DNA of 64,000 nucleotides from an uncultured Gammaproteobacteria bacterium (GTDB lineage: Bacteria; Patescibacteriota; Microgenomatia; Daviesbacterales; UBA10151). The notes under the pieces are model-generated. The model ran no database searches and was not told where the DNA came from. It saw only the letters and a program-made list of their open reading frames with translations. Where the stretch lies: contig CAZDEH010000003.1 in NCBI GenBank assembly GCA_964504665.1, positions 1,140 to 65,139 of the forward strand. Reading direction: 5' to 3'. The position numbers and the translations under genes are program-made. This document shows, in pieces, positions 37,018 to 64,000 of the stretch. Position 1 is the stretch's first letter. Each line of letters opens with the position of its first letter.

Positions 37018-37038
37018 CTCTCCACTCTCCCTCTTCAT

Positions 37039-37061
37039 GCCTCCAAGGGGACGCCTTGGAG
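37039..37061. repeat. REP-like family B palindrome (gcctccaagg-ggacg-ccttggag), 3' flank of the RAYT-like gene
   Basis: Identical to 36285-36307. Confidence 0.75.
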
Positions 37062-37063
37062 AT

Positions 37064-42688: not shown

Positions 42689-43375
42689 ATGATTGAGAGA
42701 GCTTTTGAAGAAGCACAATTACATCAGGATAATAAAGGAAACGCTACTAGGCGGTTTGCTATTGAGCAAGCTTGGAATCTATTAAGAGCTGCTGGGGTAA
42801 CTGATCCTGCTATTACCGATCAGGCTGTAGCTACAAGACTCCAAAGAGCAGTAGAATCTCTATATTTTATCACTGAAGGATTGGGAGTAAGAAGCATTCT
42901 GGATATTGGGGGTAAGTCAGTAGATCGACTAGAAGCTGATGTCAAAAGGGTAAGAAATATAGGCGGATATGCTTCAGATGTGGTGCATAATCCTAAATTT
43001 ACGACTCTTGAGAAAGTTACACCCATAGAAATAATTAAACTACCAGTTTCTGCTTTAGGATTGGATGGTACTCCTACTACCAAACAAGTTCTTGGAAGAA
43101 TCCCACAATGTAGAGTAGGAGATATGGCTTTAGAGCTTTGTCCTGTAGAAGTAGGACTACATCTGGCGATAAAAGATACAGAACAACCTTTAAGTGACTG
43201 TTACTATATTATGCACGAACCAATTCCCGACCGTCACGGCTCTCCGCTCGTGTTCGGGCTGGAGCGTGACGCTCGCGGACTTTGGTTGAGCGTTTCTTGG
43301 GCTAGACCTGACCGCAGGTGGCTTCCTGAGTATCAGTTAGTTTGTGCTCTCCGAAGGTTGCAGTACTGCGTTTGA
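42689..43375 (+). CDS. hypothetical protein with visibly higher GC and a GC-rich 3' end
   Basis: ORF with Arg/Ala/Gly-rich composition, unlike its neighbours; preceded by a TTGACA-18-TAAGAT promoter (42649-42678); occupies the position where rpoB normally follows rplL. Confidence 0.4.
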   Translation: MIERAFEEAQLHQDNKGNATRRFAIEQAWNLLRAAGVTDPAITDQAVATRLQRAVESLYFITEGLGVRSILDIGGKSVDRLEADVKRVRNIGGYASDVVHNPKFTTLEKVTPIEIIKLPVSALGLDGTPTTKQVLGRIPQCRVGDMALELCPVEVGLHLAIKDTEQPLSDCYYIMHEPIPDRHGSPLVFGLERDARGLWLSVSWARPDRRWLPEYQLVCALRRLQYCV

Positions 43376-47872: not shown

Positions 47873-49063
47873 ATGAAAATAGGTTTTGATGGATCCCGTG
47901 CTTTTTTCAATAATAAGACCGGCACGGAAAATTATTCCTTTCAACTCTTAAAACACCTAGCTAAAATTGACAGTAAAAACCAATATATCATTTATTTAAG
48001 ACCTTTAGCCTCGCAAGGACCAGCCTTGCAAGGCTGGCCGACTAATTTCCATTTTACTATGATTCCTTATTCAAGACTATGGACTCAATTTGGCTTAGCT
48101 CAACAAACTTTTAAAGATAAAATTGATGTGCTATTTGTTCCTGCCCACACACTCCCCTTAATTAGAAAACCCGGACTTAAAACTGTAGTCACAGTACATG
48201 ACTTAGGTGCAGAGTACTTACCACAAACTCATCAATTAAAACAAAGGGTATATTTAAAATTGATAACTGATTTTCAACTTAAATCTGCCGGATATCTTAT
48301 TGCCGTATCAAGGAATACTAAAGATGATCTGGTGAAAAAAGTCCATATTAATCCTAATAAAATCACTGTTATATATGAAGGATATGATAAAACAGCATTT
48401 AAACCCTTAAAAACTGATGAATTAAAAGATACTTTAAACTATTACGATTTAGAAAGAGATAGATATTTCTTATTTGTGGGAACCATCCAACCAAGAAAGA
48501 ATTTAGAAAGGTTAATTAAAGCTTTTGCTAATTTTTTAGCGGGTGGTGCGAGCCGGGGCGCCCCATATTTTTATTATGGGGCTGGCGAGCAACAGGACCC
48601 GTTAAAGCCCCGAACAAAAAAAATACAACTTATCCTAACTGGTTCTAAAGGTTGGCTTTCAGAAGAAATTTATGAACTTCCTAAAAAGCTTGGTATCGAA
48701 AATCAAGTGAAGTTTTTAGGCTATGTTCCTGACAAGAATTTACCGGCGCTTTACAGCGGAGCTACCGCCTTACTTTTCCCTTCCTTATTTGAAGGTTTTG
48801 GACTACCTCTACTTGAAGCTATGGCTTGTGGAACACCGGTTTTAACATCTAATCTTTCTTCTATGCCGGAGATTTCAGGAAAAGCAGCACTCCTTGTAGA
48901 TCCTTACTCTGAAGAACAAATCGCGCAAGGAATTAATAGGCTATTTTACGATCAAAAACTAAAAAATCAGCTGAAAAAACTGGGAATTGCGCAAGCCCAA
49001 AAATATTCCTGGGAAAGATGTGCTGAGGAAACCTTAAAACTACTTGAAGCTACTTCAGATTAA
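47873..49063 (+). CDS. GT4-family glycosyltransferase carrying two in-frame GC-rich inserts
   Basis: EGFGLPLLEAMACGTPV (GT4 E-x7-E region); inserts at 48006-48035 (LASQGPALQG) and 48540-48613 (AGGASRGAPYFYYGAGEQQDPLKPRT). Confidence 0.75.
   Translation: MKIGFDGSRAFFNNKTGTENYSFQLLKHLAKIDSKNQYIIYLRPLASQGPALQGWPTNFHFTMIPYSRLWTQFGLAQQTFKDKIDVLFVPAHTLPLIRKPGLKTVVTVHDLGAEYLPQTHQLKQRVYLKLITDFQLKSAGYLIAVSRNTKDDLVKKVHINPNKITVIYEGYDKTAFKPLKTDELKDTLNYYDLERDRYFLFVGTIQPRKNLERLIKAFANFLAGGASRGAPYFYYGAGEQQDPLKPRTKKIQLILTGSKGWLSEEIYELPKKLGIENQVKFLGYVPDKNLPALYSGATALLFPSLFEGFGLPLLEAMACGTPVLTSNLSSMPEISGKAALLVDPYSEEQIAQGINRLFYDQKLKNQLKKLGIAQAQKYSWERCAEETLKLLEATSD
48006..48035. repeat. REP-like family A palindrome in-frame in the GT4 gene (tagcctcgcaagg-accag-ccttgcaaggct)
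   Basis: Seen directly. Confidence 0.7.
48540..48613. repeat. GC-rich element family C (gggtggtgcgagccggggcgccccat ... atggggctggcgagcaacaggaccc), in-frame in the GT4 gene
   Basis: Near-identical arms recur at 56326-56400 with a different central segment. Confidence 0.7.
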
Positions 49064-50243
49064 TTCCAAATAAATTTGGGATTGTGGCTGTTGGGGTATT
49101 AAAGGTAGTTAAAACCACCAACCTACTAGAATCTAACCAGGGAAAAACGTTTACATCTTCAAATTTACCGGCAAAAATAGCTGATATATTTAATCCATCA
49201 TACTCCCCTATACTGATTTTATCCTCCAGAATTAAGATTATATGCCTAGAATCAGGTAACCAATAATATGCTTTTGCCTCAAGTAAATCAAACTCTTTAT
49301 TAGTCATCAGATCATAAACTTTAAAGCCTTTAAGCAAGTCTCCAGTCTTCAGATTCGTCCCGATTTTATCGGAACTGTCAGCTTTCAGACTACCAGTTAT
49401 TATTTTTGATTCATCAGGAGACCATTTTAAAACAGCGGAGCTAGACGCAATCTGTTGAATTTTTAAATTAGGAATAAGTGCTAGTCTTACCTCATCCTTA
49501 ATCTTTTGATCTTCATCCCAACCCTTCAGTGTATTTTCAATCAAAGGAGTTATATCTTTTAAATCACTGAGCGAGGTTTGATAGTCAGCAGATATCAAAA
49601 AATTTCTGGCAGCAGCATCACCTACTACTCCCCCTTCTTGCATAGTTACTAACAGTTGTTTGGAATCCGGTGACCATTTAAAAGTGCTTTTCGAAAAATC
49701 CAAGGTAGTCGTTGAAATAACTACTTGATGAGGTTCTGCTCCTCTGTTAAATGATAAGGGTTGTGTGGTCATAGTCCAAACCCAAATACCTCCTTTTTGC
49801 CTTGAATGCTGATCAGAGGTTAAAGGGACAGCAAAGACAAGTTTCTGCCCATCCGGAGATAATATTGGATTTATCACACCGTTATAGGTTAGGGGATAAA
49901 TGGTGGGTAAAGCAGGAAATAGCGTGGCTTTAATCTCCGAAACTATTCCCTCTTTAACCTCAATATTTTTTTCCCAGGGGATAAACCCTTCTTTAATAAG
50001 TTTAATGTTATAAGATTTAGGAGTCAGTTGTGAAAGAGTCGCATTTGTAGCAGTAGCCAAATGCCCGTCTATATAGACTGAAGCTCCATCAGGAACTGAG
50101 GTAGCTGTAATAATACCTGTTCCTGATATCCTTTTCTCTGTAGGAGAAAAAGTATAACCCTTACTTAGATATATCGTTATCCCGGCAATAATCCCAATAA
50201 ATAATATTGTGGCTAATGTAATAACAAACCTCTTACTAATCAT
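49050..50243 (-). CDS. membrane-anchored PEGA-domain protein with a TolB-like beta-propeller repeat region
   Basis: PDGASVYIDGHLATATNATLSQLTPKSYNIKLIKEGF (PEGA); repeated SPDGQKL / WSPDSKQL / WSPDESKI / WLPDSRHI blades. Confidence 0.55.
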   Translation of the reverse strand: MISKRFVITLATILFIGIIAGITIYLSKGYTFSPTEKRISGTGIITATSVPDGASVYIDGHLATATNATLSQLTPKSYNIKLIKEGFIPWEKNIEVKEGIVSEIKATLFPALPTIYPLTYNGVINPILSPDGQKLVFAVPLTSDQHSRQKGGIWVWTMTTQPLSFNRGAEPHQVVISTTTLDFSKSTFKWSPDSKQLLVTMQEGGVVGDAAARNFLISADYQTSLSDLKDITPLIENTLKGWDEDQKIKDEVRLALIPNLKIQQIASSSAVLKWSPDESKIITGSLKADSSDKIGTNLKTGDLLKGFKVYDLMTNKEFDLLEAKAYYWLPDSRHIILILEDKISIGEYDGLNISAIFAGKFEDVNVFPWLDSSRLVVLTTFNTPTATIPNLFGINLK

Positions 50244-50246
50244 TAG

Positions 50247-50966
50247 TTAATTATACCCTGCGAGTCTTGCCCGTACAACTAAACGGTTGATAGTCGTTCC
50301 CGGAGGGTCACAGGTTTGCAAAGTTAAGACAGGTTGGTCATAGGTTTGGACTAAAAAATTTATGTTACTTGGCTCAGTGATGGTTTTATCATAAACAATA
50401 TAATCAAAACGTTTGCCTTTATAAAAAAGTATGATCTTATCTCCAGTATCCATCTTTCCCAGAAGATAAAACACAGCATTGTACCTTACTACATCCCAGG
50501 GGGCATTTACTGAGTGGGAAAATAAATAAATATTACCATTTTCCCCAGGGAATACAGTACCTTTAGCATGAGCTATACCTTGTGACAATGCCTGCATATA
50601 TTCTTTTTCATTACCCGGATCAACATTCGCAATAATTTTAGCATTAGCATTTATTTTTTCTATCACAATTCCAAAATCGGTTGAGACAGGAACAATTGTT
50701 TTTTGCTCTTCACCAAATATATCACCAAAACCAGATCTATTTTCTTTAGGTGTGGGTGTTAATGTGGGGATTTCTTCCCCCACGGATGTAACTACTTTAG
50801 GTAAAACTGCTTTTCTCCCTGTAGCTTCCCCTAAATTATACTTAACCTCTTCCAAAGAAACCGGTTCAATAATCAAAATCACGGTCACAATACCTATTAA
50901 TATAAACAAATAGCTCAAAAAATGAACTATAAAAGCACTATAATAGTGTGATAATATTTTTTTCAT
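50247..50966 (-). CDS. sortase-family transpeptidase candidate
   Basis: N-terminal TM; IYLFSHS (His), VLTLQTCDPPGT (TLxTC Cys), RLVVRARL (Arg); start MKKIL at 50966 avoids overlap with the tRNA. Confidence 0.55.
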   Translation of the reverse strand: MKKILSHYYSAFIVHFLSYLFILIGIVTVILIIEPVSLEEVKYNLGEATGRKAVLPKVVTSVGEEIPTLTPTPKENRSGFGDIFGEEQKTIVPVSTDFGIVIEKINANAKIIANVDPGNEKEYMQALSQGIAHAKGTVFPGENGNIYLFSHSVNAPWDVVRYNAVFYLLGKMDTGDKIILFYKGKRFDYIVYDKTITEPSNINFLVQTYDQPVLTLQTCDPPGTTINRLVVRARLAGYN

Positions 50967-50969
50967 CAG

Positions 50970-51042
50970 TATCCCTGGAGGGATTTGCACCCCCGACCTT
51001 TCCCTTAGGACGGGACCGCTCTATCTACTGAGCTACAGGGAC
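50970..51042 (-). tRNA. tRNA-Arg (anticodon CCU)
   Basis: Reverse complement gives GTCCCTG-TA-GCTC..GAGC, anticodon loop GTCCTAA, T-arm GGGGG-TGCAAAT-CCCTC, acceptor CAGGGAT (G-U at 1:72). Confidence 0.65.
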
Positions 51043-51059
51043 AAAACATCTATAATAAT

Positions 51060-51205
51060 GATTATACCAGTTATAATTGTTATAATCTTCTAAATTATAC
51101 GGGGACTAGTTCACCCGCCTGCTAGCGCCTGAGCGCCCGCCTGCTTCGATAGGCGAAGCATTTCGGGCAGGCAGCGATGGCGGGCAGGTCGGTAGCCCGC
51201 CAAAA
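51060..51205. repeat. GC-rich structured block between divergent tRNA genes
   Basis: cccgcctgc / gcaggc, cttcg-ataggc-gaag, gcggg...cccgc inverted repeats; composition unlike the AT-rich surroundings. Confidence 0.45.
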
Positions 51206-51208
51206 TTT

Positions 51209-51280
51209 CGGGGATTGGCGCAGTGGTAGCGCGCTCGGTTCGGGACCGAGAGACCGGCAGTTCAAATCTGCCATCCCCGA
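51209..51280 (+). tRNA. tRNA-Pro (anticodon CGG)
   Basis: Acceptor CGGGGAT/ATCCCCG, D GCGC/GCGC, anticodon stem CTCGG/CCGAG with loop TTCGGGA, T-arm GGCAG-TTCAAAT-CTGCC. Confidence 0.85.
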
Positions 51281-51298
51281 CAAATAGAAGACTAAAAA

Positions 51299-52156
51299 TT
51301 AAGCTGAAAGAGAGTCTGGTTCTGTAGTTAACAATCTACTGTCTAAATCACGAGGATTATAGCTGATGGCCCTTAAGGCACTTACCACCAGTGACCCACG
51401 CTCTTCAAACACCCTTTGTATTGCTAGAAGTTCTCTTCCTCTACCAACACCCAACATCCTCTTAGGTTCTTTTTCTGAAAAAATAAACATGGATTTTCTA
51501 GTTGCAACAGATCGTCCTGCAAGCTCCATGACTATTCTTCTTAACTCCCCAACTTCTCTTTGCACAGATAAAATAGAATCACTGCCATGTACCAAATTAT
51601 TGGGCAGGTTTTCTTCAATGGCATGTCTCCCGCGGATAGAATCCGGGTCTGCCTGTTTGGGGTGAGTTGCCCCCATTCTACCTCTCCACCAGCTGACAGC
51701 ATCTCCCTGCTCACGGTAAATTAACATAAAGGTTAAGGGGCCTGACTGAGCATGGCTGGAAATCATATCCCAAATCTCTCTAGGATATTTATCCTTAGCA
51801 TCCTGATAAAATCGTTCTACATCATGGTTTGAGAGTTTGGTAGAAAAAGTAAAAACAACATTATCATGCTCAGTCTCATCCATAAGCATATCTGCAGCTG
51901 CTTGGTCATCAGAAGACAATCCCTTACTTACATTTACCTGAGGTTTAATTAACCCTAAGGTTATTTTCCCCTCTGCTATAAGCTTGTCAAGTTCCGGATG
52001 ATGTAATACCTTATTAATTCTATTTAATTTTTGCTGTTCCAACTCTCCTAAAGCTACTTCACCGGAACGGATACCATCTGTAACCTCCGCTGCTAATCCT
52101 CTGTTATGAGAATTAAATACATATGGTGTTTCTATATTAAATATTTCTCTACTCAT
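51299..52156 (-). CDS. ndk: nucleoside diphosphate kinase with N- and C-terminal extensions
   Basis: ITLGLIKPQ, HAQSGPLTFMLIY, GATHPKQADPDSIRGRHAI, NLVHGSDS (active-site His). Confidence 0.7.
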   Translation of the reverse strand: MSREIFNIETPYVFNSHNRGLAAEVTDGIRSGEVALGELEQQKLNRINKVLHHPELDKLIAEGKITLGLIKPQVNVSKGLSSDDQAAADMLMDETEHDNVVFTFSTKLSNHDVERFYQDAKDKYPREIWDMISSHAQSGPLTFMLIYREQGDAVSWWRGRMGATHPKQADPDSIRGRHAIEENLPNNLVHGSDSILSVQREVGELRRIVMELAGRSVATRKSMFIFSEKEPKRMLGVGRGRELLAIQRVFEERGSLVVSALRAISYNPRDLDSRLLTTEPDSLSA

Positions 52157-52429
52157 TTTTTTGGCGCTTCCCTTTCTTATTTCTTTTTATCAAGGAATTT
52201 TATAAAATTATCCAGAACTTGAATCTCTTTGAGGATTTTTTTCTTTTTAATGTTCTGCTTATTATCCTGATCGCTTATCATTATTGCATCAAAAAACAGA
52301 TTGACTTTTTTTGTGAAGCCACGATATCATAGCATCTTATTGTCTAAAATTCAAGTAGCTATCCACCACAAAAAATCTGTGAATTTCACAGCTAACGAGA
52401 CTTAAAAAGTTTATTAGCCCAAGAAGAAA

Positions 52430-53503
52430 TTACTCTTCTGTTAAAATTTTAGCCATTTGTTTAAGTAAAGCTACCACTACCGGAGCAGGCATCAAACTAT
52501 GAGATTCCACTCCTTGGTTATCTTGCACTACCCAAGGACTTTCATGAGTACTCACGGTCTTGGTTTGTTCATCAAATTGATAGCTAAAAGCAGGTGTCAG
52601 CTCATATTTATCAAAAAGTTCTTCTGCCTGGCTTACAGGAATAGAATTCCGCAACAGTATGTTGGGGATACCGGAAAGTTTAAAAGACTCATCTATAATT
52701 TCCTGATCTTTTGCAAGCCTCTCTTTAATTGGGTCTATCCCTAATTCATCACCCTCTTTACTAACCATAATGGCTTTATTGCAAGATGGATTATCGCATC
52801 TCAGATAATATTCTTTTGTCTTTTCATCATATTCTACAATAGAGGTTGGTAATAATCTGATGTTGCGTGGAGCTTGACAGATAGGACAGATCCGGCGGAA
52901 TTTAATTCTTTCATTGATCACAGAGTCCGGAATATCAATCAAAATGTACATGTCTTGATCCGCTCCTCTCCCAACAATTTCCTTAAAATATAATGAGCAA
53001 GATATTTGATCAATTTCTCGCGGGTATCCATCCAGAAAAACACTTTTTCCGGCTAACTCATCAAATTTTACCCTGAGCATTGCCAGGATAAACTCTGAGG
53101 GGAGTAATTTACTGGCAGAACGACCCAAGAATCTTTCAACTGCCTCGTCAAAACTCAAAGGTCCCCTATAAAATGATTTTAATTTTTTGCCTTGCTCACC
53201 TTTAGAATAATTCTCCCAATCAGCATGTACTTCCCTCACCAAATCACCCACAGAAAGATGAACTATTTTTTCTTTTCCGATCAAATTGGAAAATATTTTT
53301 GAATACGTTCCTTTACCGGCATTCTTTTTCCCCACAAAGAAAGCAATGAAGTTTCGTTTTTCTAAAGCTTTTTTGATAATTTCAATTTCTTTTCCTGTTT
53401 TAGCTTGAAAATACGCCTGCAACGAATCGGGATTGGTTAAATCATAAACTTTAGTCACATCTTGTGTTTTAGCACCAATTAAAGGAAAATTAGTTTTTGT
53501 CAT
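52430..53503 (-). CDS. adenylate kinase-family protein (extended, Zn-lid type)
   Basis: GKKNAGKGTY (P-loop), SVGDLVRE, LDGYPRE, and lid CPICQ...CDNPSC. Confidence 0.55.
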   Translation of the reverse strand: MTKTNFPLIGAKTQDVTKVYDLTNPDSLQAYFQAKTGKEIEIIKKALEKRNFIAFFVGKKNAGKGTYSKIFSNLIGKEKIVHLSVGDLVREVHADWENYSKGEQGKKLKSFYRGPLSFDEAVERFLGRSASKLLPSEFILAMLRVKFDELAGKSVFLDGYPREIDQISCSLYFKEIVGRGADQDMYILIDIPDSVINERIKFRRICPICQAPRNIRLLPTSIVEYDEKTKEYYLRCDNPSCNKAIMVSKEGDELGIDPIKERLAKDQEIIDESFKLSGIPNILLRNSIPVSQAEELFDKYELTPAFSYQFDEQTKTVSTHESPWVVQDNQGVESHSLMPAPVVVALLKQMAKILTEE

Positions 53504-54642
53504 TATTCCACCTCTATATCTGAAATATTGTAACTGCCATCAGCATAAACGTCAACGGTAGCAAATCTGGGAGCCTCTGTATTCCGTTCTTTGGTTATTG
53601 CTCCAACTGTAACCATATTCATATTACTTGCCATATCAGTGTATGAAGTATATGCATGAATATCACCGGCAAAGATTCCTGCCACACCCGCATTTTTAAA
53701 ATTATTTAGCAGCTCCTTAGCCTGCTCTTTAATTTTAGTATTTTCCAATATGGCTGGATCTGTTTTTCTGGCAGAGCCCGCTTCGCCGAATCGAGACGAG
53801 TCCGCTTCGCCAGTCTTGCGAGGCGAGCCCATGACTTGATCTGAGGTTGGATGAACCAATGGTTCATGTAGAAAGATATAGATTGACTTAGATTGATTAG
53901 TCTGCACCTTATTTAATTCATTTTTTAACCAGTTAAATTGTAAATCGTCTACCCCATTATAATTATCAGAGTTAAAAGTAAGAATAAATCTGACACCGGA
54001 ATCGGAAAAAGCCTGATAAGGCATACCAAATACCTGGCTATAATTATTGACCGCAACACTACCTTTATCCCGAGAGTCCCACAAATCATGATCTCCCGGG
54101 ATGACATAAAAAGGTAAGCCGCTTGTCTCAAAAACCTGCTTGGCATCCTCCAACTCCTTAATTGTTCCCACATCACTAAAATCTCCCAAACCAATCACAA
54201 ACTTTGCTCCACCTGCTTTAGCTTGAGCTAAGGCTTTTTTTAAATCTTCATTGTTGTTATGTGAATCTGCTACAAGGGCAAATTTAAAAAGCGGAGATCC
54301 GCTTTTCTTTGTGGGACGGGAAGTATTGTTATTTTCCGGTGCATCGTTGTTATTCAAGGACAATTTTAGATCTTTAGCAGGACTAAAACTTAAGACACCG
54401 GCAATCATTTTGGTCGTTTCCTCTGAAGTAATAAGCCCAATAATTGCCTGTTTAGGGTTAGCTGGAAACTCATTCACAGCTTTCGTAATAGGATCACCCT
54501 CAAGTATATTCCCTGAAAAATATTTAAAAGCCTGAATCAGAGCTACTCCTAAAATTAAAAATAAAACCAGGGAAATAAACAGCCTCAAGATAGTCAAAGG
54601 CAGTGGTACTCCGTGTCTCCGATTTTCAGACCGATGAAACAT
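53503..54642 (-). CDS. calcineurin-like metallophosphoesterase, membrane-anchored, with an in-frame GC-rich insert
   Basis: ALVADSH, GLGDFSDVG, YVIPGDHDLW, GDIHAY; insert GSPRKTGEADSSRFGEAGSA encoded by 53776-53829. Confidence 0.65.
   Translation of the reverse strand: MFHRSENRRHGVPLPLTILRLFISLVLFLILGVALIQAFKYFSGNILEGDPITKAVNEFPANPKQAIIGLITSEETTKMIAGVLSFSPAKDLKLSLNNNDAPENNNTSRPTKKSGSPLFKFALVADSHNNNEDLKKALAQAKAGGAKFVIGLGDFSDVGTIKELEDAKQVFETSGLPFYVIPGDHDLWDSRDKGSVAVNNYSQVFGMPYQAFSDSGVRFILTFNSDNYNGVDDLQFNWLKNELNKVQTNQSKSIYIFLHEPLVHPTSDQVMGSPRKTGEADSSRFGEAGSARKTDPAILENTKIKEQAKELLNNFKNAGVAGIFAGDIHAYTSYTDMASNMNMVTVGAITKERNTEAPRFATVDVYADGSYNISDIEVE
53776..53829. repeat. GC-rich element family D (cccgcttcgcc ... 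ttgcgaggcgagcc), in-frame in the metallophosphoesterase
   Basis: Shares both termini with 59094-59134. Confidence 0.65.
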
Positions 54643-54659
54643 AATATTAATTATACACG

Positions 54660-56294
54660 CTACATTCTTTCCGGCGCTTCAATCCCCATAATTTTAAGTG
54701 TATTACCCAAAACAATTTTGCAGGCTGAAACTAAAGCCAGTCTGGATTTTTTTAAATCATCCGTTTCAGCATTAAGTACTCTGCAGGATTCATAAAACTT
54801 ATGGAATAAATCTGCCAATTTTATAACATAAGCTGTTAATTTATGAACATGATAGGTTTCCGCTATCTCTGCTATCAAATCAGGAAACTGAACTAAATGT
54901 TTAATTAAGGATAGTTCTAAGTGATTTAATTTAGCCACGCCAAGCGAGGCTTGGGAGCCCACATCGGCTTTATTTAAAATATTAGACATTCTGGCATGAG
55001 CATATTTAACATAATAGACAGGGTTTTTTTGTGATTTTTCTTTGGCTAAATCCAGATCAAAATTCATATGAGTATGCATATCATACATTAGAAAGAAAAA
55101 ACGGATTTCGTCTTTACCAATTGTCTGCAATAGCTCATCCAAAGCAACATAAGTACCTGCCCTTTTACTCATTCTTACTTCTTGTCCATTTTTTATAAGC
55201 TTCACCATCTGGAATAGGACAAAATCTAACCACTCAGTTTTAGTAATAGCTTCCACACTCAACTTTAATCTAACTACATAACTATGATGGTCAGCTCCCA
55301 GAAAATTTATCCTTTTTACGTAACCACGCTTGAACATCTCCAGGTGATGAATAATATCTGGCAGCAAATAGGTGGGTTCGGCTCTACCACGCACATCAAC
55401 TGACGTCATCAACACCCGATCTTTTTCATCCCCAAATTGACTTGATTTGAACCAGACTGCTCCGTCTTTTTTATAAGATAATCCTTTCTCTTCTAATAAT
55501 TTAACTGTTTTTTGGATTAAATCTCTTTCATGCAGACTTCGTTCGGAATAATACTCATCAAATTTAATTCCCATTTTTTTTATTGCCGGCTTAATTTCAT
55601 GATCCATAAGATAATCTGCCAGGATATAACCTAATTCCTGAGACTCTAAATCCAGTTTGTCTACAAATTTAACAGCTAATTCTTTAATATATTCACCCTG
55701 ATAATGTTCTTCTTTAGACTCAATTTTTCCTGCAGCAGAGAGCACAGATTCACCAAGTATTCTGATCTGATTACCAGTATCATTAACATAATATTCTCTA
55801 TTGACCTCAAATCCATTCCAGCTTAAAACGTTAGCTAGTGTATCCCCAAGTGACCCTCCCCTACCATTAGCTAGTGTTAAAGGACCTGTTGGATTAGCAG
55901 AAATATACTCAACCTGAATTTTTTTACCCTTCCCAAAATCAGACTTGCCAAAATCTTCACCCTCTTTTAAAATAACCTCCAAGCTTTTTACTAATATCTC
56001 ATCTTTAATATAAAAGTTAATAAAGCCCGGACCAGCAACTTCTATTTTATCCAAATATGGAAGGGTTCTTAAATTTTCCAAAATTTTATTAGCAATCTCT
56101 TGCGAAGTTTGCTTGCCTTTTTCTGATTTCTGTTTAGCAAGCTGCAAAGCGATGTTCGAAGTATAGTCTCCAAAGGATGAATTTTGTGGAATATCACAAA
56201 CTATATCAATGGTTTTAAAAACCTGCCTGTCGGCAGGCAGACCTAAATCTTCTACAGCTTTTTTTAAGTCACCAACTAACTGCTGCTTAATCAT
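54660..56294 (-). CDS. argS: arginyl-tRNA synthetase
   Basis: ISANPTGPL...GRGG (HIGH-region equivalent), C-terminal DALR/anticodon-binding region HKFYESCRVL. Confidence 0.85.
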   Translation of the reverse strand: MIKQQLVGDLKKAVEDLGLPADRQVFKTIDIVCDIPQNSSFGDYTSNIALQLAKQKSEKGKQTSQEIANKILENLRTLPYLDKIEVAGPGFINFYIKDEILVKSLEVILKEGEDFGKSDFGKGKKIQVEYISANPTGPLTLANGRGGSLGDTLANVLSWNGFEVNREYYVNDTGNQIRILGESVLSAAGKIESKEEHYQGEYIKELAVKFVDKLDLESQELGYILADYLMDHEIKPAIKKMGIKFDEYYSERSLHERDLIQKTVKLLEEKGLSYKKDGAVWFKSSQFGDEKDRVLMTSVDVRGRAEPTYLLPDIIHHLEMFKRGYVKRINFLGADHHSYVVRLKLSVEAITKTEWLDFVLFQMVKLIKNGQEVRMSKRAGTYVALDELLQTIGKDEIRFFFLMYDMHTHMNFDLDLAKEKSQKNPVYYVKYAHARMSNILNKADVGSQASLGVAKLNHLELSLIKHLVQFPDLIAEIAETYHVHKLTAYVIKLADLFHKFYESCRVLNAETDDLKKSRLALVSACKIVLGNTLKIMGIEAPERM

Positions 56295-56325
56295 AAATTA
56301 ATCATAACATATATACGATGGGTGG

Positions 56326-56400
56326 TGCGAGTCGGGGCGCCCCATCGAACACCCGCAACGAAGTGAGGATGTCGGATGGGGCTGACGAGCAATAGGACCC
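56326..56400. repeat. GC-rich element family C, intergenic copy (atgggtggtgcgagtcggggcgccccat ... atggggctgacgagcaataggacccat)
   Basis: Both arms match 48540-48613 with 3-4 substitutions. Confidence 0.7.
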
Positions 56401-56401
56401 A

Positions 56402-57394
56402 TCATTTTTTTGATAATTTCCATACCCCTACTCCCAACATTAAATAATACCCTATCCACATCAATATCCCTGTTTGGTTAATATTAATACTGGCCCCAGG
56501 TATTTTGGAAAATAGCTGAACGATATAAATAAAGTAGGTCAGTAAAATTCCCGGTATTAAACCCACAATTTGACCCAAGAGTTGACTGATCAAACCTAAA
56601 ATCATAGCCACAAAACCTGAAATCATCACGATTGGCACACTCCAAAGAACTAAACTATTTGTAAGGAGTCCTGCAATAGAAATTTGATTAAAATTATAGG
56701 CAATCACTGGTAATACCATCAGTTGAGCAGCTAAAGTTACGGCAAAATCTTCTCTCATTAGCTTGGGGATCTTTTTTATAGCTTCAGAAAAAATTGGAGC
56801 TACCACTATTACTCCAAATGTAGCCAGAAAACTGAGCTGAAAAGAAATATTTAGCAACCAATTTGGTTGATAAAGTAACATCAGGCCTCCGGTAAACAGT
56901 AAAATCCACCAACCAGTTCCCTCCCTGCCTAACAGCTTTCCTGTATAGGAGAGTCCTGCCATAATAGCCGCCCTAACTACCGGCACTCCAAAGCCTGTTA
57001 ACACACTATAAAATATAATTACTCCTAAAGTGAATATTATTGTTTTTCTCCTGCCTAATAAACTTACCAGACTCATGACAAATCCTGCCAAAATAGTTAA
57101 ATTTTGACCTGAAACTACCACAATATGAATGGTTGAAGTTATCTGTAATTGCTTTTTAAAATAAAATGGTAAACTCGACTGATTCCCTAAAATAATGCCT
57201 GAAAGTAGGGCTGACTGAGGATAAGGTAAGATACGGTCAATAGTTTGAGATAGCGACGATCTAAGAGGCAAAAATAGCTGAACACCTTCTTCTTTATAAG
57301 TGGGGTCAACTCCCCCAATTTGGATTACCCTAAAACTAAATAATATAGCCCAAATTATGATAATCCCAATAATAACCTTGTACATTGTTACCAA
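56402..57394 (-). CDS. comEC: ComEC/Rec2-family competence channel protein (TM core only)
   Basis: SALLSGIILGNQSSLP...IHIVVVSGQNLTILAG (Competence domain); adjacent to comEA. Confidence 0.65.
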   Translation of the reverse strand: MVTMYKVIIGIIIIWAILFSFRVIQIGGVDPTYKEEGVQLFLPLRSSLSQTIDRILPYPQSALLSGIILGNQSSLPFYFKKQLQITSTIHIVVVSGQNLTILAGFVMSLVSLLGRRKTIIFTLGVIIFYSVLTGFGVPVVRAAIMAGLSYTGKLLGREGTGWWILLFTGGLMLLYQPNWLLNISFQLSFLATFGVIVVAPIFSEAIKKIPKLMREDFAVTLAAQLMVLPVIAYNFNQISIAGLLTNSLVLWSVPIVMISGFVAMILGLISQLLGQIVGLIPGILLTYFIYIVQLFSKIPGASININQTGILMWIGYYLMLGVGVWKLSKK

Positions 57395-58041
57395 ACATTA
57401 ACTAACCCCTTGATCTTTTCATAAACTGACCTGGAGACTACTTTTTTAGTTAAGAGATCCTCTATGCCTGAATATGGTCTATTATCAATAATTTTCTGGG
57501 CAGTAACCGGTCCAACACCAGATAATTTATCTAAATCAGCCGGGGTGGCAGTGTTAATATTTATAAGTACTTGCTGGTTTGAAATGGTGTCATTTGACAC
57601 CAACACAGAACTTACCTGTGATGTTTCCCCTGTTGATGGCACATAAATCTTCATTCCATCTACCACCTTTTGGGCTAAATTTATAGTTTTTGATAAATAT
57701 GTCGGGTCTACTGACTCTGTTACTCCTCCGGCTATTTTTAGGGCATCTTCAACCCTAGCATCAAAAGGCAATGAATAAACACCGGGAGTTTTTACTGCAC
57801 CTGAAACATCAACTTTTACTTCTTGTACTTTTTTAACACCGCTGACTTCAGAAGCAGAAACTAAAGGTGGTAATTGTTTTGAGGACTTAATGAAAGTTTT
57901 GGGGATAATCCCGGAAGAAATAATACCACCAATCAGTAGAACAAAACCCACTATTCCCACAATAATTGGCACTTTTAATCTAGCTAGCGAATCATCCAGA
58001 TTACTTTCCAAGTTCATATTTAATATAAACCAAACCTCCAA
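57388..58041 (-). CDS. comEA: ComEA-like helix-hairpin-helix DNA-binding competence protein
   Basis: ININTATPADLDKLSGVGPVTAQKIIDNRPY... Confidence 0.7.
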   Translation of the reverse strand: MEVWFILNMNLESNLDDSLARLKVPIIVGIVGFVLLIGGIISSGIIPKTFIKSSKQLPPLVSASEVSGVKKVQEVKVDVSGAVKTPGVYSLPFDARVEDALKIAGGVTESVDPTYLSKTINLAQKVVDGMKIYVPSTGETSQVSSVLVSNDTISNQQVLININTATPADLDKLSGVGPVTAQKIIDNRPYSGIEDLLTKKVVSRSVYEKIKGLVNVW

Positions 58042-58496
58042 ATAGACCTTTTAATCTTAACTTTTCTCTTATACTGTTCTTTTAACTCTTCCCGGTAACT
58101 TTTAATCCATGCTCTGTAAGCATTAAATAGGTGTACCAAACCCCTAGTTTCCATCTCTTTCTTAATCACTCCTCCTTCATGCGGAAATCTGTGTAACCTT
58201 TGGTGGGGTGAAGAAAAACCATGGGCATAATGACAAAGTTCATGGGCAATTGTATGGTCAACTACCTCCTCTGCAACACTAAGGTCTTTAAACATAGCAG
58301 TAATAGTAATGTATGTTTTACCTGAAGCTGGATCAAGCTTGATTGAACCGAGCCTGAGTTTTGAATAACGACCAAAGCGGATTAAGATTAGGTTCAGTCG
58401 AGGTACATCTTTAAAATAAACTGACCAGAGGAAGTTAAGCCTACCAAACAACCAGGAGTTATCTCGGGTATAAGATGTAGTTGCTAAATTAGGCAT
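58020..58496 (-). CDS. DUF45/YgjP-like HExxH metal-dependent hydrolase
   Basis: TIAHELCHYAHGFSSPHQRLH. Confidence 0.5.
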   Translation of the reverse strand: MPNLATTSYTRDNSWLFGRLNFLWSVYFKDVPRLNLILIRFGRYSKLRLGSIKLDPASGKTYITITAMFKDLSVAEEVVDHTIAHELCHYAHGFSSPHQRLHRFPHEGGVIKKEMETRGLVHLFNAYRAWIKSYREELKEQYKRKVKIKRSIWRFGLY

Positions 58497-58525
58497 TATT
58501 AATTATTGTATGAATTTAAAAATAT

Positions 58526-61150
58526 TTAGTCAACTTCATTAATCAGCCACCAATCAAAAGTAATATCTTTAGATGCATTTTTAGAAGCAGTCACAGTAAA
58601 TTTTTTAGCTTCTTCTTTAGCAGTCACTGCCAACACTGTATCTGTCTCCGTTGTGGGTGTTACCAGAATTCTTGATCTTGTTGAAACTATTAAGTTATCG
58701 ATCTCCACTGATTTTTCACCCAAAGTAATTTTTGCATTACCTGATGTCTTTCCCCCTTTTATTTTAAGTTCAGAAACTTCAGCTGTTTTGGCTTTGACAG
58801 TTCCTGTCTTATCAATAGTAACCATCCCGTTAAAAAAATCTACCAAAGCTGTCAAATCTGATTTTTGAATGAATAGAGTGGGTAAAGCATTGATGGCATT
58901 GCCATCAGTCAGGAAAAGTGTCCCATCTTGAACAATATCACCAGCAGCAATCACAGTACCCACCAGAGTTTCTCCCAAGGATTTTAAAGTTTTGGAAAAT
59001 GTTGCGGTTTCATATGTTAATAAGGAACCTGATAAGGTTGCTTCCATAGGAGGCTCTAGAGTGAGGTTGAGATTGTCTACCGACTGCTGACTTCCCGCTT
59101 CGCCCGTCTTTGACGAGGCTTCGCGAGGCGAGCCGACTTCTGCTAAACCAGCAGAAGGAGTAGCAGAGGAAGAAGCGGATTGTTGTGCTGAAGTACTGGA
59201 CTCCTCGGATGGTGGCAACGACCTGTCCGCCGAAGCCGTGGCGAAGGAAGAAGGAAACTCCTCCGAGGTGAACAGAGTGGCTGAGATGGAAGATTCTAAA
59301 TTATTTAATCTCAAATCTGTATCTTTTAATACTGCTACAATATCAAGAGTGAGGTGATAGCTGCTGCTAACCTCTGTTGCTAACTCCTGGATAGACTTAA
59401 CTAAAACTGGGATCATTCCGATGGTATTTAATGATTTTAACCCTGTTTCACTCTCAGTTGTTACCAGTTTAGGTATAACTTGTTCTACCTCTTGGGCAAT
59501 AAACCCAAGATTTTTAGTAATAGCATCAGATTCTGTTTTCCAGTTATACCAAACAGGCCGAAGAGACATTACAGCATCCAGTCCATAATTTAGATCATCA
59601 ATATTTTTCTTTAAGTTAACATCTGAAGAACAGGAAATTGTTCCTCCTGTAGCCAAAGTACACCCTGTGGTATTCACATCAGTAAATTTAGCTATAGTTG
59701 CTCCTGTGCCTGTGCCTTTTACCTCAAAAGGAGCAGAAGGATTGGTGGTGCCAATTCCTACATTGCCAGTCGAACTGTCGACAGTTAATGAATCACTCCA
59801 CATAGGATTACCTGATGTCCCTATGATCATAGTACTTCCTTGATTACCAGCACTCAGCGCTGAAAATGAAGTAGTTGAGTCAGCAAATAATAAGTCACCA
59901 GCTAAAAAAGAGGATAAACCAGTACCACCATGCTCAGGGCTTAACTCCCCTTGTTTAATAGAGCCTGCATCAACATGACCATCATATGATATAGAAATAC
60001 TATCTTGTATATCAGAATCTATCAAGCAATTATCACAACCACCCCTATCTCTGACAGAAAATAAAGTAGATGTGTCACTAATAACTAAACCATCAACCGC
60101 AATGTCATTACCTCCAATAAGTTTCAAATCTCCACTAAGTCCCCCTAAAGAGCTGACTAAAGCTGGTAATTTTAAACTTATTTTCGGTGTTTGCCCACCG
60201 GAAATAACCACATTATCACCGGCTATTAGACCATAAATAATATTAGGAGCAGTTAATAGTCCCTCCACAATAGTGCTGCCTTTAAGCATAATCTGGTTAA
60301 CAGCATCTGTTGATTCTCCAAGAACCTTGGTATCAGAATTTATTTGTTGACGATTAAAAGTCGAAGATGAAATTTTAACGTTTGTAGATAACTGGCGTAT
60401 TTGATCAGTCATTTCCAAAACTTCATCCATCTCTGTTTGTATACCAGCTACTTTCTGGTTAATAAAATTAGTATTGCTATTAACTTTATCTAACTTATCC
60501 ATAATTTGAAAACCAGTATACAACCCAATAGATACTCCTGCTGACATAATGAAAAGAAAAAGAATGACTGCCAACGAATAATGAATTACGTTTGTTCTGC
60601 TAGATCTATTATTACTATTTTTTGGTTGATCAGGGGAAACAGCTCCGGGAATGTTCATCTCCTCTTGTAGCTTTAAAATTAATTTTTTGGAAAAACGCCT
60701 GGCTCCTCCACTGGCTCTTTGACTGGCAATTAACCCTTTTTTATCCCAGTTCCTAATAGTATCCGGGGAAACCTGAAGTAATCTGGCTGCCTTAGAAACA
60801 GACAAACCGGTAATTAGGGCGTTAACTTGAGTCTTATTTTTAGTATTTAGTTGTTTTTGCATCTCTTCCAATTCAATTAGGTTGTAGCGCCTGGATCCAC
60901 CTTGCGTTCTATCCGGTATCAGCCTTCCTTGTTTTTCCCAATTTCGGAGAGTGTCAGGATTCACTTGTAAAATTTGGGCTGCTTTAGAAATTGGGATGAA
61001 ACTTTTGGCTATCTTTCTCGGCTTACTAGATGGGATACTTACTCTCATCTCAAATAGTCTATTTTGACCTATAATTAAAGAGTTTCCAGCAGCACTTTTT
61101 TCTTCGTGTAGTTCTAGAGTTGGTAATCTTTTAAGTGTTAATTTAGGCAT
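58526..61150 (-). CDS. large membrane-spanning protein: two N-terminal MerR-type HTH domains, one TM, an extracytoplasmic beta-rich region with an S74-like intramolecular-chaperone domain, and a Ser-rich tail
   Basis: VNPDTLRNWEKQGRLIPDRTQGGSRRY and VSPDTIRNWDKKGLIASQRASGGARRF (MerR HTH + wing); TM VIHYSLAVILFLFIMSAGVSIGL; NLKKNIDDLNYGLDAVMSLRPVWYNWK...LGFIAQEVEQVIPKLV resembles the tailspike chaperone (peptidase S74) motif; in-frame family D repeat at 59094-59134. Confidence 0.5.
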   Translation of the reverse strand: MPKLTLKRLPTLELHEEKSAAGNSLIIGQNRLFEMRVSIPSSKPRKIAKSFIPISKAAQILQVNPDTLRNWEKQGRLIPDRTQGGSRRYNLIELEEMQKQLNTKNKTQVNALITGLSVSKAARLLQVSPDTIRNWDKKGLIASQRASGGARRFSKKLILKLQEEMNIPGAVSPDQPKNSNNRSSRTNVIHYSLAVILFLFIMSAGVSIGLYTGFQIMDKLDKVNSNTNFINQKVAGIQTEMDEVLEMTDQIRQLSTNVKISSSTFNRQQINSDTKVLGESTDAVNQIMLKGSTIVEGLLTAPNIIYGLIAGDNVVISGGQTPKISLKLPALVSSLGGLSGDLKLIGGNDIAVDGLVISDTSTLFSVRDRGGCDNCLIDSDIQDSISISYDGHVDAGSIKQGELSPEHGGTGLSSFLAGDLLFADSTTSFSALSAGNQGSTMIIGTSGNPMWSDSLTVDSSTGNVGIGTTNPSAPFEVKGTGTGATIAKFTDVNTTGCTLATGGTISCSSDVNLKKNIDDLNYGLDAVMSLRPVWYNWKTESDAITKNLGFIAQEVEQVIPKLVTTESETGLKSLNTIGMIPVLVKSIQELATEVSSSYHLTLDIVAVLKDTDLRLNNLESSISATLFTSEEFPSSFATASADRSLPPSEESSTSAQQSASSSATPSAGLAEVGSPREASSKTGEAGSQQSVDNLNLTLEPPMEATLSGSLLTYETATFSKTLKSLGETLVGTVIAAGDIVQDGTLFLTDGNAINALPTLFIQKSDLTALVDFFNGMVTIDKTGTVKAKTAEVSELKIKGGKTSGNAKITLGEKSVEIDNLIVSTRSRILVTPTTETDTVLAVTAKEEAKKFTVTASKNASKDITFDWWLINEVD
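59094..59134. repeat. GC-rich element family D, in-frame in the 874-aa protein (encoding GSPREASSKTGEAGS)
   Basis: cccgcttcgcc ... ttcgcgaggcgagcc. Confidence 0.65.
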
Positions 61151-61609: not shown

Positions 61610-64000
61610 TTAGATAACAATGTTAAATATTTTACCCGGAACGTAAATTATTTTTTTGATAGAGTTTTCTCTAATATATTTGTCAATTTTTGGTAATTTT
61701 AAGACCATTTCTTCAATGATTTTTTTATTATTTACTATATCTTTTTGTATCAAAATGTTTTCCCGTAGTTTACCGTTTATCTGTATAACCAAAATGGTCT
61801 GTTCATCTTCCAGGTATTTTTTATCAAATTCAGGCCAGGGTTGGTTATGGATAGAATACTTATTCCCCATTATCTCCCACAGTTCTTCAGTAATAAACGG
61901 CGCTATTGGAGATAACATAATCAGCAGCTTTTGAATGGTATCTTTGGAGGCTGTTTTTTGTCTGGATAGAAAGTTTAATAGCTCCATTAGACTTGCCACA
62001 ACAGTATTGTATCGCAGGTTTTCAAAATCATTATCAGTTTTTTCGATAGTTTTGTTCAAAATTCTCTTTTCTTCTTCTGTCGCCTCAATATCTTTATAAT
62101 TTTGTACTAAACCCCACACCCTGTTAAGAAAACGATAGGTTCCATTTAAACCGTCATCCCGGAAATCACCCCCACCAGTAAATGGTCCCATAAACATTAG
62201 ATAGGCTCTGAATACATCGGCTCCCCAATCTTTAATGTATTTATCAGGCACAACTACATTACCTTTAGATTTACTCATTTTAGCTCCGTCTTTAATAATT
62301 AAACCGTGAGCCCTAAATTTTGTGAATGGTTCTTCGAAATCAATAAATCCCAGATCCTTAAAAGCCATGGTGATAAACCGCGAGTAAAGCAAGTGAAGAA
62401 CTGAGTGCTCTGCCCCACCAATATACATATCTACAGGCAGCCATTTCTTAGTTCTACTGTCATCAAAAAATTTGTCATCTAAATCCGTGGTTAAATATCT
62501 AAAAAAATATAAAGCTGAGTCAAAAAAATTATCCGATACATCAGTCTCACGCCTGGCTTTTCCCCCACACTTAGGGCAAGTAGTATTAACAAAATCTGGA
62601 TCTGAAGCTAAAGGCCCTAAACCTGTACCCGTAGGCTTAAAATCTTTAACATAAGGCAACTCTACTGGCAAATCTTTTTCCGGCACGGGCTGGGTTCCAC
62701 ACTTATCGCAGTAAATTATTGGAATTGGTGGACCCCAATACCTTTGCCTGGAAATTAACCAATCACGCAGATGATATTGAATTTTAATTGAGCCCAGATG
62801 ATGCTCTACGAGATAGTTTGTTATCTTCTCTCTCGCTTCCGGGGAATTCATACCATTATACTCTCCGCTATTAACAAGTACTCCTTCACCCTCATAAGCT
62901 TCTTCTGATATCTCAGCTTCACAAGGTGTATCCTTGCGAAGCTGAATAACAGTTTGGATGGGTAAATTATATTTCTTAGCAAACTCAAAATCCCTTTGAT
63001 CGTGTGCCGGAACAGCCATAATTGCGCCTGTTCCATAACCCATCAACACATAATCAGCCACCCACACAGGAATGTCTTTCCCAGTGAGAGGATTTTTAAC
63101 AAATGTACCTGTAAAAATACCTGTTTTTTCCTTATCTCCTTGGCGTTCAATATCAGATTTTTCCTTGGCTGCTTGAACATAATCTGAAACTTTGCCTTTC
63201 TGCTCTTTAGTAACTAGTTGATCTATTTTTGGGTATTCCGGACTAATAACCAAGAAAGTTGCTCCAAAAACAGTATCCGGCCTGGTAGTAAACACTTCTA
63301 ATTCGCCGAATTTTATTAAGGCTCCCTCTGATTTTCCTATCCAATTGCGCTGAGCTGTTTTGACTAATTCCGTCCAGTCTAAGGAATCTATATTTAAAAG
63401 CAGTTTTTCTGCATAATCTGTGATCTTTAGAAACCATTGGTCCACTTCTTTTTGAACCATTGTTCAAGTTCTTTTTTCGTCACCCGAGAAGAACATCTCT
63501 CACACTCTCCGGAAATAACCTGCTCATCAGCGAGTACTGTCAGACATGATGGACACCAATTTACCTCTGCTCTTTTCCGGTAAGCCAATCCCTTTTTATA
63601 TAGCTGAAGAAAAGCCCACTCCGTCCATTTGTAATAGTTTGATTTATATGTATCGACTGTTTTCTGCCAATCAAAAGCATTCCCAATTAATAAAAACTGC
63701 TCATAAAAATGCTTTTCTGTTCTTTTACTCACCTCCATTGGATGCTCATTTATTTTCATTGCATAATTTTCGCCATGAATTCCAAAACCATCCAGGCCAA
63801 TAGGTTCAAATACATCATACCCTTGTAGCCTTTTAAACCTGGAGTAAACATCTGATCCTGTAAAAGCATACATATTACCTACATGCATACCCTCAGCTGA
63901 AGGATAAGGAAACATCATCAGAGAATAATATGGTTTTTTTGATTCATCTAAATCAGGGCTAAATAGACCATCTTCTTTCCACTTTTTTGCCCATTTAGGT
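61610..64000 (-). CDS. leuS: leucyl-tRNA synthetase, split by a frameshift near 63430-63475; N-terminus extends beyond the window
   Basis: FPYPSAEGMHVGN (HIGH), CERCSSRV, then WFLKITDYAEKLL in the second ORF; KMSKS at MSKSKGN; upstream frame remains open to nt 64000. Confidence 0.8.

Follow-up and report, generated by a model that had tools for sequence, protein, structure and literature searches.

In a 64,000-nucleotide (nt) stretch of contig CAZDEH010000003.1, from a bacterium that the names of its homologues place in the Candidatus Daviesbacteria (hereafter, the window is this whole stretch), a 27-nt, G+C-rich element that we term family D lies in frame within two unrelated genes, one encoding a membrane-anchored metallophosphoesterase (MPE) and the other an 874-residue protein. 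The strongest result of our analysis, which rests on comparison of sequences, is the nucleotide identity of D inside MPE genes that have otherwise diverged deeply. We favour, with a little more confidence than doubt, the reading that D is a miniature repeat resembling the repetitive extragenic palindromic (REP) type, lying within or derived from a pool of other hairpins in the window (family A), and spread by copying through a transposase, gene conversion or both.

The basic D unit reads GGCTCGCCTCGC-AAGACN-GGCGAAGCG and codes for GSPRKTGEA. Its sequence is about 70% G+C, compared with 36% for the window as a whole. Both sites lie in minus-strand open reading frames (ORFs), with D on the coding strand and in the same reading frame:

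53503-54642, minus strand: host gene 1, membrane-anchored metallophosphoesterase of 379 amino acids (aa), whose homologues carry Pfam Metallophos
53803-53829, minus strand: D unit 1, pristine, 27 nt, GGC TCG CCT CGC AAG ACT GGC GAA GCG, coding for GSPRKTGEA
53779-53802, minus strand: D unit 2, degenerate tandem unit, 24 nt, GAC TCG TCT CGA TTC GGC GAA GCG, coding for DSSRFGEA
53752-53778, minus strand: probable old, decayed unit 3, GGC TCT GCC AGA AAA ACA GAT CCA GCC, coding for GSARKTDPA
58526-61150, minus strand: host gene 2, 874-aa protein with two MerR-type helix-turn-helix domains, a transmembrane segment and a Peptidase_S74 domain
59094-59134, minus strand: D copy in host gene 2, GGC TCG CCT CGC [GAA GCC TCG TCA] AAG ACG GGC GAA GCG GG

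Unit 1 directly follows the ATG (Met) codon at 53830-53832 in a loop of the MPE, and the units in order give the peptide GSPRKTGEA-DSSRFGEA-GSARK. Unit 2 retains GGCGAAGCG and CTCGTCTCG and has a C-to-T variant also found in loci L003 and L068, while the stretch of unit 3 is the 'native' GS[AP]RK segment of the window's clade. An age gradient therefore runs through the tandem, from a pristine through a degenerate to a decayed unit. A preliminary description of the window had reported an internal duplication at this site; the repeat is present, but it is a degenerate 24-nt second unit in tandem after the 27-nt one. The copy in the 874-aa gene is one D unit expanded by 12 bases (GAAGCCTCGTCA), which separate GSPR from KTGEAG, so that it reads GSPR-EASS-KTGEAGS (the codon after GCG is GGA), and its right half, AAGACGGGCGAAGCGGG, is identical to that of L002 and L083. 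Every copy of D is a multiple of three in length and free of stops, and translational bypassing of the kind found in T4 gene 60 and the yeast mitochondrial byps was set aside for that reason.

The element that the preliminary description had placed at 53776-53829 and 59094-59134, in minus-strand ORFs, is thus present in a shared frame, and it stands far above chance. The decamer CCGCTTCGCC occurs exactly three times in the window (53778, 53802 and 59095; 0.44 expected). The 14-mer TYGCGAGGCGAGCC, searched with <=2 mismatches, matches three times (0.09 expected; 0 of 100 shuffles reach three), with the two D sites matched exactly and a family-A hairpin at 28986 matched with two mismatches. This leaves D at a density of 2 loci in 64 kb, both of them intragenic.

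The same unit stands at the same codon in diverged MPE orthologues (protein and locus labels pair as P0002/L001, P0003/L067, P0004/L002, P0005/L003, P0020/L065, P0018/L066, P0039/L083 and P0122/L073). At the MPE site, L002 has just one unit of 27 nt and L003 one unit with a 3-nt addition, and the same peptide occupies the same place in orthologues of 45-50% identity (P0020, P0022, P0031 and P0039). In L083, whose protein is 49% identical to the MPE of the window, the stretch reads GGC TCG CCT CGC AAG ACG GGC GAA GCG GGT and agrees with that of L002 at 30 of 30 bases. Codon alignments gave the following values for the genes and for the element within them:

L002 and L083: 49% identity in aa, 57% in gene nt, 43% at third positions; element 28/28
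Window and L083: 49% identity in aa, 57% in gene nt, 39% at third positions; element 27/28
Window and L002: 68% identity in aa, 73% in gene nt, 57% at third positions; element 27/28

A more diverged copy (22-24/28) is found in L065, with no gain in length relative to the sister P0018/L066, which lacks D. Carriers of D are patchily distributed on the MPE tree, and beside each stands a close relative whose site is empty (window/P0002, P0005/P0006 and P0020/P0018). A single codon has been occupied repeatedly. Over 60 nt on each side of D, carriers are no more alike than carriers and non-carriers are, and a recent allelic recombination patch was rejected on that ground. Three explanations of the identity of D remain: re-introduction at the same point of the MPE, restoration from other copies, and selection on the bases themselves.

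An alignment of 24 homologues identified 17 extra residues in the MPE of the window that have no counterpart in its closest orthologue, P0002/L001 (81% aa identity), nor in P0003, P0006-P0017 and others. P0002 is the sister of the window's MPE in a neighbour-joining tree (bootstrap 98). D is also missing at this site in L067, L074 and L075, and the empty-site DNA of L001 and L067 reads ATG GGY TCN GCN AGA AAR. Representatives of the wider MPE family, together with many orthologues, have a short form, M-G-[KRW]-x8-QA, and the ancestral form is M-G-K-x8-QA. Most alignments of family representatives to the window's MPE split in two, the first part ending near residue 273, where the insertion starts. 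Because the sister orthologue and the short-form orthologues lack it, and because the alignments break at that residue, GSPRKTGEA is a real insertion of nine residues behind Met-Gly, with GGGCTC / GGGYTC direct repeats at its bounds. In an AlphaFold2 model it sits between a strand (253-258, ..FLHEP) and a helix (302-318), and residues 273-299 are coil with a predicted local distance difference test score (pLDDT) < 50, which places it in a predicted disordered loop.

Since the short form of the wider family lacks the whole stretch, the 'native' GS[AP]RK[ST]DP of the window's clade is itself best read as an older, decayed copy of D, a reading supported by a graded series among orthologues (GSPRKTGEAG > GSPHKDEGETG > GSARKTNEGKE). 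This bears on a possibility raised in the preliminary description, that the shared segment might turn out to be a conserved protein motif: GS[AP]RK is indeed conserved in many MPE orthologues, but it looks like a set of decayed D copies.

In the 874-aa protein, D lies in a Ser/Thr/Ala-rich linker after the Peptidase_S74 domain, which is of the tail-fibre type. Because this linker is hypervariable and unalignable, and because the sole full-length orthologue (P0122, 63% identity, L073) has an unrelated A+T-rich sequence of about the same length without D, an insertion cannot be demonstrated here from the sequences. The alignment of orthologues, by which the preliminary description had expected both segments to be recognised as insertions, thus bears out the MPE and not the 874-aa protein. 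A GAAGTC repeat at the latter site would imply an insertion of 46 nt, which is not a multiple of three. The 874-aa gene has a further G+C-rich patch at 59214-59250, with GGCGAAGG / GCCGAAGCC motifs that are faintly D-like on the opposite strand. For both hosts, the D segments are probably tolerated passengers in disordered regions and not functional motifs.

Beyond the window and the MPE locus, we scanned 185,579 species-representative genomes with CTCGCAAGACN{1,4}GGCGAAGCG and obtained 61 matches, none of them credible. Nearly all were unrelated and mostly from high-G+C lineages, with several at what appears to be a single locus of many Methylocystis genomes, and the one match in Patescibacteria (L010) was dismissed for its different context. 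A scan of JGI metagenomes identified five contigs, three of them of low G+C and amounting to two distinct loci. L068 and L069 are the same locus, where the host of D is a gene for a RarA-like AAA ATPase that reads it as ARLAEDEAKRA; in L072 the host is the ArgRS gene, with D on the opposite strand and LARFAGSSARRAKA as its reading. Both arms, GCTCG[CT]CTCGC and GCGAAGCGGGC, are retained in these copies, around the loop TGAAGACNNG. Viral contigs, scanned for D arms and family-A hairpins, yielded chance matches only (4/6 in contigs of 59-71% G+C). Because synonymous positions are near-identical, and because the related copies of L068 and L072 differ from those of the window in frame and orientation, D is a real dispersed nucleotide repeat family, read in several frames and orientations and rare in public data, and not a protein motif; the preliminary description was right in calling it a nucleotide element. 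D has been copied between loci and between lineages, and its copies have survived in frame in tolerant regions.

The potential of D to form a hairpin is modest. Its arms, GCTCGCCTCGC / GCGAAGCGGGC, enclose a loop that contains AAGAC, and the 11-bp stem is imperfect, with one C-A mismatch and, on one strand, G-U/G-T pairs. Folded as RNA, the basic unit reaches -14.9 kcal/mol (z -2.2), and the copies in L072 and L068 reach z -3.2 and z -2.2, respectively. Across eight D copies, 86% of pair cells hold a pair, whereas slid controls give about 40%. Rfam 15, run over the window at the gathering threshold and over 48400-59400 at E<=1, returned tRNAs only and no family for D.

The second set of hairpins in the window, family A, has the form TTAGCCTCGCAAGG-N5-CCTTGCRAGGC (z -3.95), is tagged by TTAGCC and has arms of 11-13 bp:

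28989-29017, plus strand: representative hairpin, TAGCCTCGCAAGG-ATCAA-CCTTGCAAGGC, in frame in the PBP gene
3045-3081: intergenic, found by covariance model
4592-4620: in Fmt, in frame
6833-6861: in TGT, in frame
48006-48034: in GT4, in frame
54928-54963: in ArgRS, weak, found by covariance model
62914-62942: in LeuRS, in frame

Six copies lie in frame in ORFs (Fmt, TGT, PBP, GT4, LeuRS and a Y1 transposase gene described below), giving LASQG..LQG peptides in one orientation and LRK..PC.A in the other. Together with both D loci, 7/8 family-A loci are within ORFs, in a window that is about 85% coding. The motif CYTYGCRAGR occurs 17 times in the window, against 1.45 expected. Family-A peptides stand at the same sites in many Daviesbacteria orthologues of Fmt, GT4, PBP and TGT and are missing in others, and the complete genome of a relative has the hairpin DNA in Fmt and none in TGT. 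Compared with solved structures, TGT has an insertion of 13 residues at its hairpin and Fmt is 5 residues longer, while the LeuRS hairpin adds no length relative to L074.

Two genes for Y1 (HUH) transposases resembling REP-associated tyrosine transposases (RAYTs) lie in the same window, each with hairpins beside it:

31228-31914, plus strand: RAYT-like Y1 gene 1, with an upstream hairpin at 31165-31193
36343-37017, plus strand: RAYT-like Y1 gene 2, with hairpins at 36282-36310 and 37036-37064, GCCTCCAAGG-GGAC-GCCTTGGAG

The genes are paralogous, and their products (224-228 aa) conserve the HFH and YIHKQ motifs. Pfam PF01797 (Y1_Tnp) matches both above its cut-off (E 5e-14 for gene 2); against NCBIfam, the best and only match is NF047646 (REP-associated tyrosine transposase), at 35-39 bits with a cut-off of 80, and a protein sequence search of the PDB gave no match. 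Gene 1 also contains an in-frame hairpin at 31709-31737, a hybrid of the family-A and flank types, right after the tyrosine motif YIHKQ. The flank hairpins, GCCTCCAAGG-N4/5-CCTTGGAGG (z -5.2), differ from family A by one base per arm, and the upstream one abuts a TTGACA box. In L065 and L067, Y1-type genes with their own, different flanking hairpins lie between ArgRS and the MPE gene, and another is found at the edge of L082.

Several features connect D with this pool. D shares the 10-mer GCCTCGCAAG with a family-A arm (estimated chance likelihood from base composition, ~4e-4) and GCGAAGC with the tail of the other arm, and it resembles a family-A hairpin in which the inner stem and loop (13 nt) have been replaced by 7 nt. 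The frame of D in the MPE is that of family A in reverse orientation (CCT CGC AAG and CTT CGC AAG). A family-A covariance model scores the two D sites at 12.3 and 11.6 bits (E 0.5 and 0.9), a weak match that is nonetheless among the top ~20 loci and adjoins the scores of the transposase-flank hairpins. With moderate confidence, D is probably a relative or derivative of family A. The kinship suspected in the preliminary description is to that extent upheld, but not the idea that D is the longer relative: the D unit, at 27 nt, is ~6 nt shorter than a family-A hairpin, and the MPE site is long only as a tandem.

In the account that we favour, family-A-type hairpins would populate the genome of this member of the Candidatus Daviesbacteria (Microgenomates, within the candidate phyla radiation, CPR) together with RAYT-like Y1 genes. 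Because the window is ~85% coding, copies would land in genes, and the survivors would be those that are multiples of three, free of stops and situated in loops or linkers that tolerate them, where translation would presumably yield short peptides rich in Gly/Ser/Pro/Glu/Ala. The 'long form' of the MPE would have arisen through an early insertion behind its Met-Gly codons. This first copy would have decayed in most lineages, with fresh copies later added or restored at the same point in several of them, to a depth of three units in the window. Two routes may be envisaged. In the first, a Y1 enzyme acting in trans would transpose D as a single strand. Elements of the IS200/IS605 type leave the short target beside which they insert intact, so that re-insertion next to a resident copy would be possible. 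The second is ectopic gene conversion or template switching at hairpins, with other copies as donors and the remnant as landing pad, which would also explain the family-A copies that add no length.

A number of observations weigh against this account. D is rare, with 2 loci in 64 kb, only three low-G+C contigs from JGI and nothing credible among the 185,579 genomes. Across four independent loci there is no consistent target sequence or target-site duplication, and their 5' flanks have no common motif; recurrence at one codon is hard to explain by a short target alone. Unlike REPs, D has no GTAG/CGTC at either end and is flanked by GG..GGGY, and it lacks the TTAGCC / xTAG head of family A. In the 64 kb we saw no transposase gene with D-type hairpins at its flanks, the Y1 genes there carrying other hairpins, and the family-A covariance match is not significant for either D site alone (E 0.5-0.9). 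With DNA parameters, D folds no better than shuffles (z -0.4 to -1.25), and no compensatory pair changes occur among the eight D copies. Finally, apart from the window's own contig, every MPE contig with D whose origin was looked up derives from SRA runs that have adjacent accession numbers, so that sampling bias is possible.

A bolder proposal, which we put forward only tentatively, is that D is a homing-like, translated 27-nt mini-element. It would enter the same codon of one gene, and a few other genes as well, again and again, in lineages whose divergence precludes ordinary homologous recombination. Either a Y1 transposase supplied in trans or hairpin-templated conversion would bring this about, and each new copy would come to lie beside the previous one. 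If this were true, D would rank among the smallest site-preferring mobile units known, and in ultra-compact CPR genomes the chief habitat colonised by REP-type elements would be coding sequence.

The main rival, unlikely on present evidence, attributes the identity of D to purifying selection on a cis-acting nucleic-acid signal (an mRNA hairpin with an effect on stability or ribosome pausing, or a protein-bound DNA site, broadly comparable to an uptake or recognition sequence) that arose once in the MPE gene and decayed in lineages that lost the function. Agreement at 27-28/28 bases between orthologues whose synonymous sites are saturated is what such a signal would produce, the hairpin is favoured with G-U pairs on one strand of the element, and family-A hairpins persist at orthologous sites in many Daviesbacteria. 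The competence genes ComEC and ComEA are present in the same window, and DNA uptake sequences, with which D shares the traits of a short motif found across related species, likewise occupy tolerant coding positions in preferred frames, in organisms with competence genes (Findlay & Redfield 2009, PMC2817400). Uptake sequences, however, are 9-12 nt long, occur at ~1 copy per kb in both orientations and accumulate without a change in length, whereas D has 27 nt including a conserved loop, lengthens the MPE and is far less dense, at 2 loci/64 kb in the window and a single MPE copy per carrier locus of 1.4-4.8 kb. The repeated absence of D from close relatives argues that it is dispensable, and a pristine unit beside a decayed one (in the window, L002 and L003) needs a new copying event. 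Because the copy in L072 is antisense to its host gene, a function in mRNA would not be general, and neither a match to an Rfam family nor compensatory substitutions speak for a conserved structure.

It is improbable that D arose by local tandem duplication or slippage of the native GS[AP]RK.. sequence of the MPE, with the copy in the 874-aa gene secondary or coincidental and no relation to family A or a transposase. GSPRKT does resemble the GSARK[ST] that follows it, the copy in the window is a tandem (27 + 24 + decayed 27 nt), and the GGGCTC / GGGYTC repeats at its bounds would also permit precise loss by slippage. Unit 1 is nevertheless closer to distant copies than to its neighbours, sharing ~48% of bases with the downstream 'native' 27 nt and 96-100% with copies from other species, and it matches the copy in the 874-aa gene. 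The short-form orthologues, moreover, show that the GSxRK stretch is itself an insertion, D-like copies occur in unrelated genes of other organisms, and GCCTCGCAAG is shared with family-A hairpins.

Very little probability attaches to the reading of the shared segment as a protein motif, a selected flexible Gly/Ser/Pro/Glu linker on which the two proteins converged. Both copies do encode similar low-complexity peptides in loops or linkers, but this is contradicted by the data on frame and orientation, with the same DNA read as ARLAEDEAKRA in L068 and as reverse-strand LARFAGSSARRAKA in L072; in addition, synonymous positions are conserved, the G+C-rich codons are atypical for a genome of 36% G+C, and close orthologues function without D. 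An artefact of assembly or contamination, to which the adjacent accessions of the SRA runs (plus the window's own contig) might point, can be practically discounted, given that D lies in frame at one codon of genes 27-43% different in DNA, has substitutions and indels of its own (L003, L065) and is found in independent assemblies from ENA, NCBI, Logan and JGI.

Turning to known systems, the favoured account of D as a copied, REP-like repeat has one of its closest parallels in intragenic REPs, which code for short peptides, are tied to Y1 transposases and have been described in Proteobacteria, Opitutus, Thauera and Rickettsia (GTAG/CGTC-tagged; Di Nocera et al. 2013, PMC3733652). Like D, these are short G+C-rich stem-loops with G-T pairs in their stems, and they add peptides to ORFs as single units or dimers, including genes for tRNA synthetases and DNA metabolism; they are associated with IS200/IS605-type tyrosine transposases. 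The host of D, in contrast, is a member of the Patescibacteria (CPR), a group outside that survey; a coding location is the rule in the window, and D recurs at one codon across deeply diverged orthologues. D agrees with the REP type in being a short (20-40 nt) imperfect palindrome, though weakly so, with its DNA-parameter folds and lack of covariation, but it departs from the many dispersed, mostly extragenic copies of REPs, having 2 intragenic loci in 64 kb. The REPIN-RAYT system (Bertels & Rainey 2011, PMC3116915; 10.1101/2021.07.10.451892) is similar in its Y1 gene flanked by hairpins and its dispersed hairpin populations, and in its long-term vertical inheritance, slow turnover and conserved 'master' sequence. 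REPINs are extragenic inverted REP doublets, however, whereas D is intragenic and either a single unit or a direct tandem, and the Y1 genes of the window are flanked by GCCTCCAAGG..CCTTGGAGG hairpins, whose kinship is with family A and which differ from the D type. In the literature we found no account of REP/RAYT-type repeats from CPR bacteria.

The classic case of in-frame insertion is that of the Rickettsia palindromic elements (RPEs), found in housekeeping genes of a small A+T-rich genome (PMC10969869). As with RPEs, the palindrome of D is in frame in unrelated genes at sites where the fold is tolerant (two genes, an MPE coil of pLDDT<50 and a sister orthologue without the element). RPEs have no linked transposase, and D, with its 27 nt and 9 aa, is set apart from them by length (~100-150 bp, ~30-50 aa). 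D accordingly fits no named family, having neither the tag of REPs nor the doublet form of REPINs and being far shorter than RPEs. In yeast mitochondria, GC clusters are G+C-rich palindromic mini-elements of 30-60 bp in an A+T-rich genome, with an optional in-frame cluster in var1; their presence or absence varies at fixed sites, including a coding gene, and their spread is attributed to gene conversion. These clusters (discussed in PMC4464245) are organellar, eukaryotic and unrelated to D in sequence, and serve as an analogy only.

Genomes of the CPR/Patescibacteria are small and gene-dense, and little is known of their repeats. If D and its kin are of REP type and mainly intragenic, CPR proteins would owe lineage-specific loop insertions to a source that has gone unrecognised, and odd G+C-rich patches and local artefacts of annotation in metagenome-assembled genomes might also be due to it. 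Such elements would lend themselves to the question of whether transposition, gene conversion or selection keeps a 27-nt sequence identical from species to species and brings it back to one codon.

Other G+C-rich features were noted in the window and in related contigs. Behind the ..AR..S[IV]L helix of ArgRS lies a variable region that has a different G+C-rich hairpin in each of four organisms:

L002, 1-34: ArgRS variable-region hairpin
L066, 1434-1470: ArgRS variable-region hairpin
Window, 54928-54963: ArgRS variable-region hairpin
L072, 3589-3617: ArgRS variable-region hairpin, D-type in reverse orientation

The region looks like a recurrent 'slot' for G+C-rich elements; the island in the window lies in a variable stretch in which insertion cannot be judged. 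A third G+C-rich repeat, GGGTGGYGCGAGYCGGGGCGCCCC.., of up to ~90 nt, occurs in the window at 48535-48602 (in frame, in GT4) and at 56315-56360 (between ArgRS and ComEC), and is conserved in intergenic spacers of relatives (L074 7248-7336; L075 3369-3428 and 7152-7242; L082 7759-7849). It has no Rfam match, and GT4 orthologues have variable G+C-rich insertions at the same spot. Another G+C-rich patch, at 43224-43322, lies inside a 228-aa ORF (42689-43375) without a Pfam match.

LeuRS is split into two overlapping ORFs (63427-63918 and 61610-63460) by an imperfect ~22-nt duplication at 63380-63520 (..KKELEQWF / MVQKEVDQWF..), the second ORF having an ATG of its own; the enzyme may be genuinely split, or the cause may be a frameshift or a misassembly. 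A stretch of ~165 nt (51043-51208) that separates divergent genes for tRNA-Arg and tRNA-Pro is ~67% G+C and contains several perfect stems (e.g. TGCTTCG-ATAGG-CGAAGCA); there is no Rfam match even at E<=1, and the stretch may represent a cluster of repeats or a structured RNA that has escaped annotation. A fifth tRNA, unreported by ARAGORN, was found by Rfam at 13595-13666 (51.9 bits).

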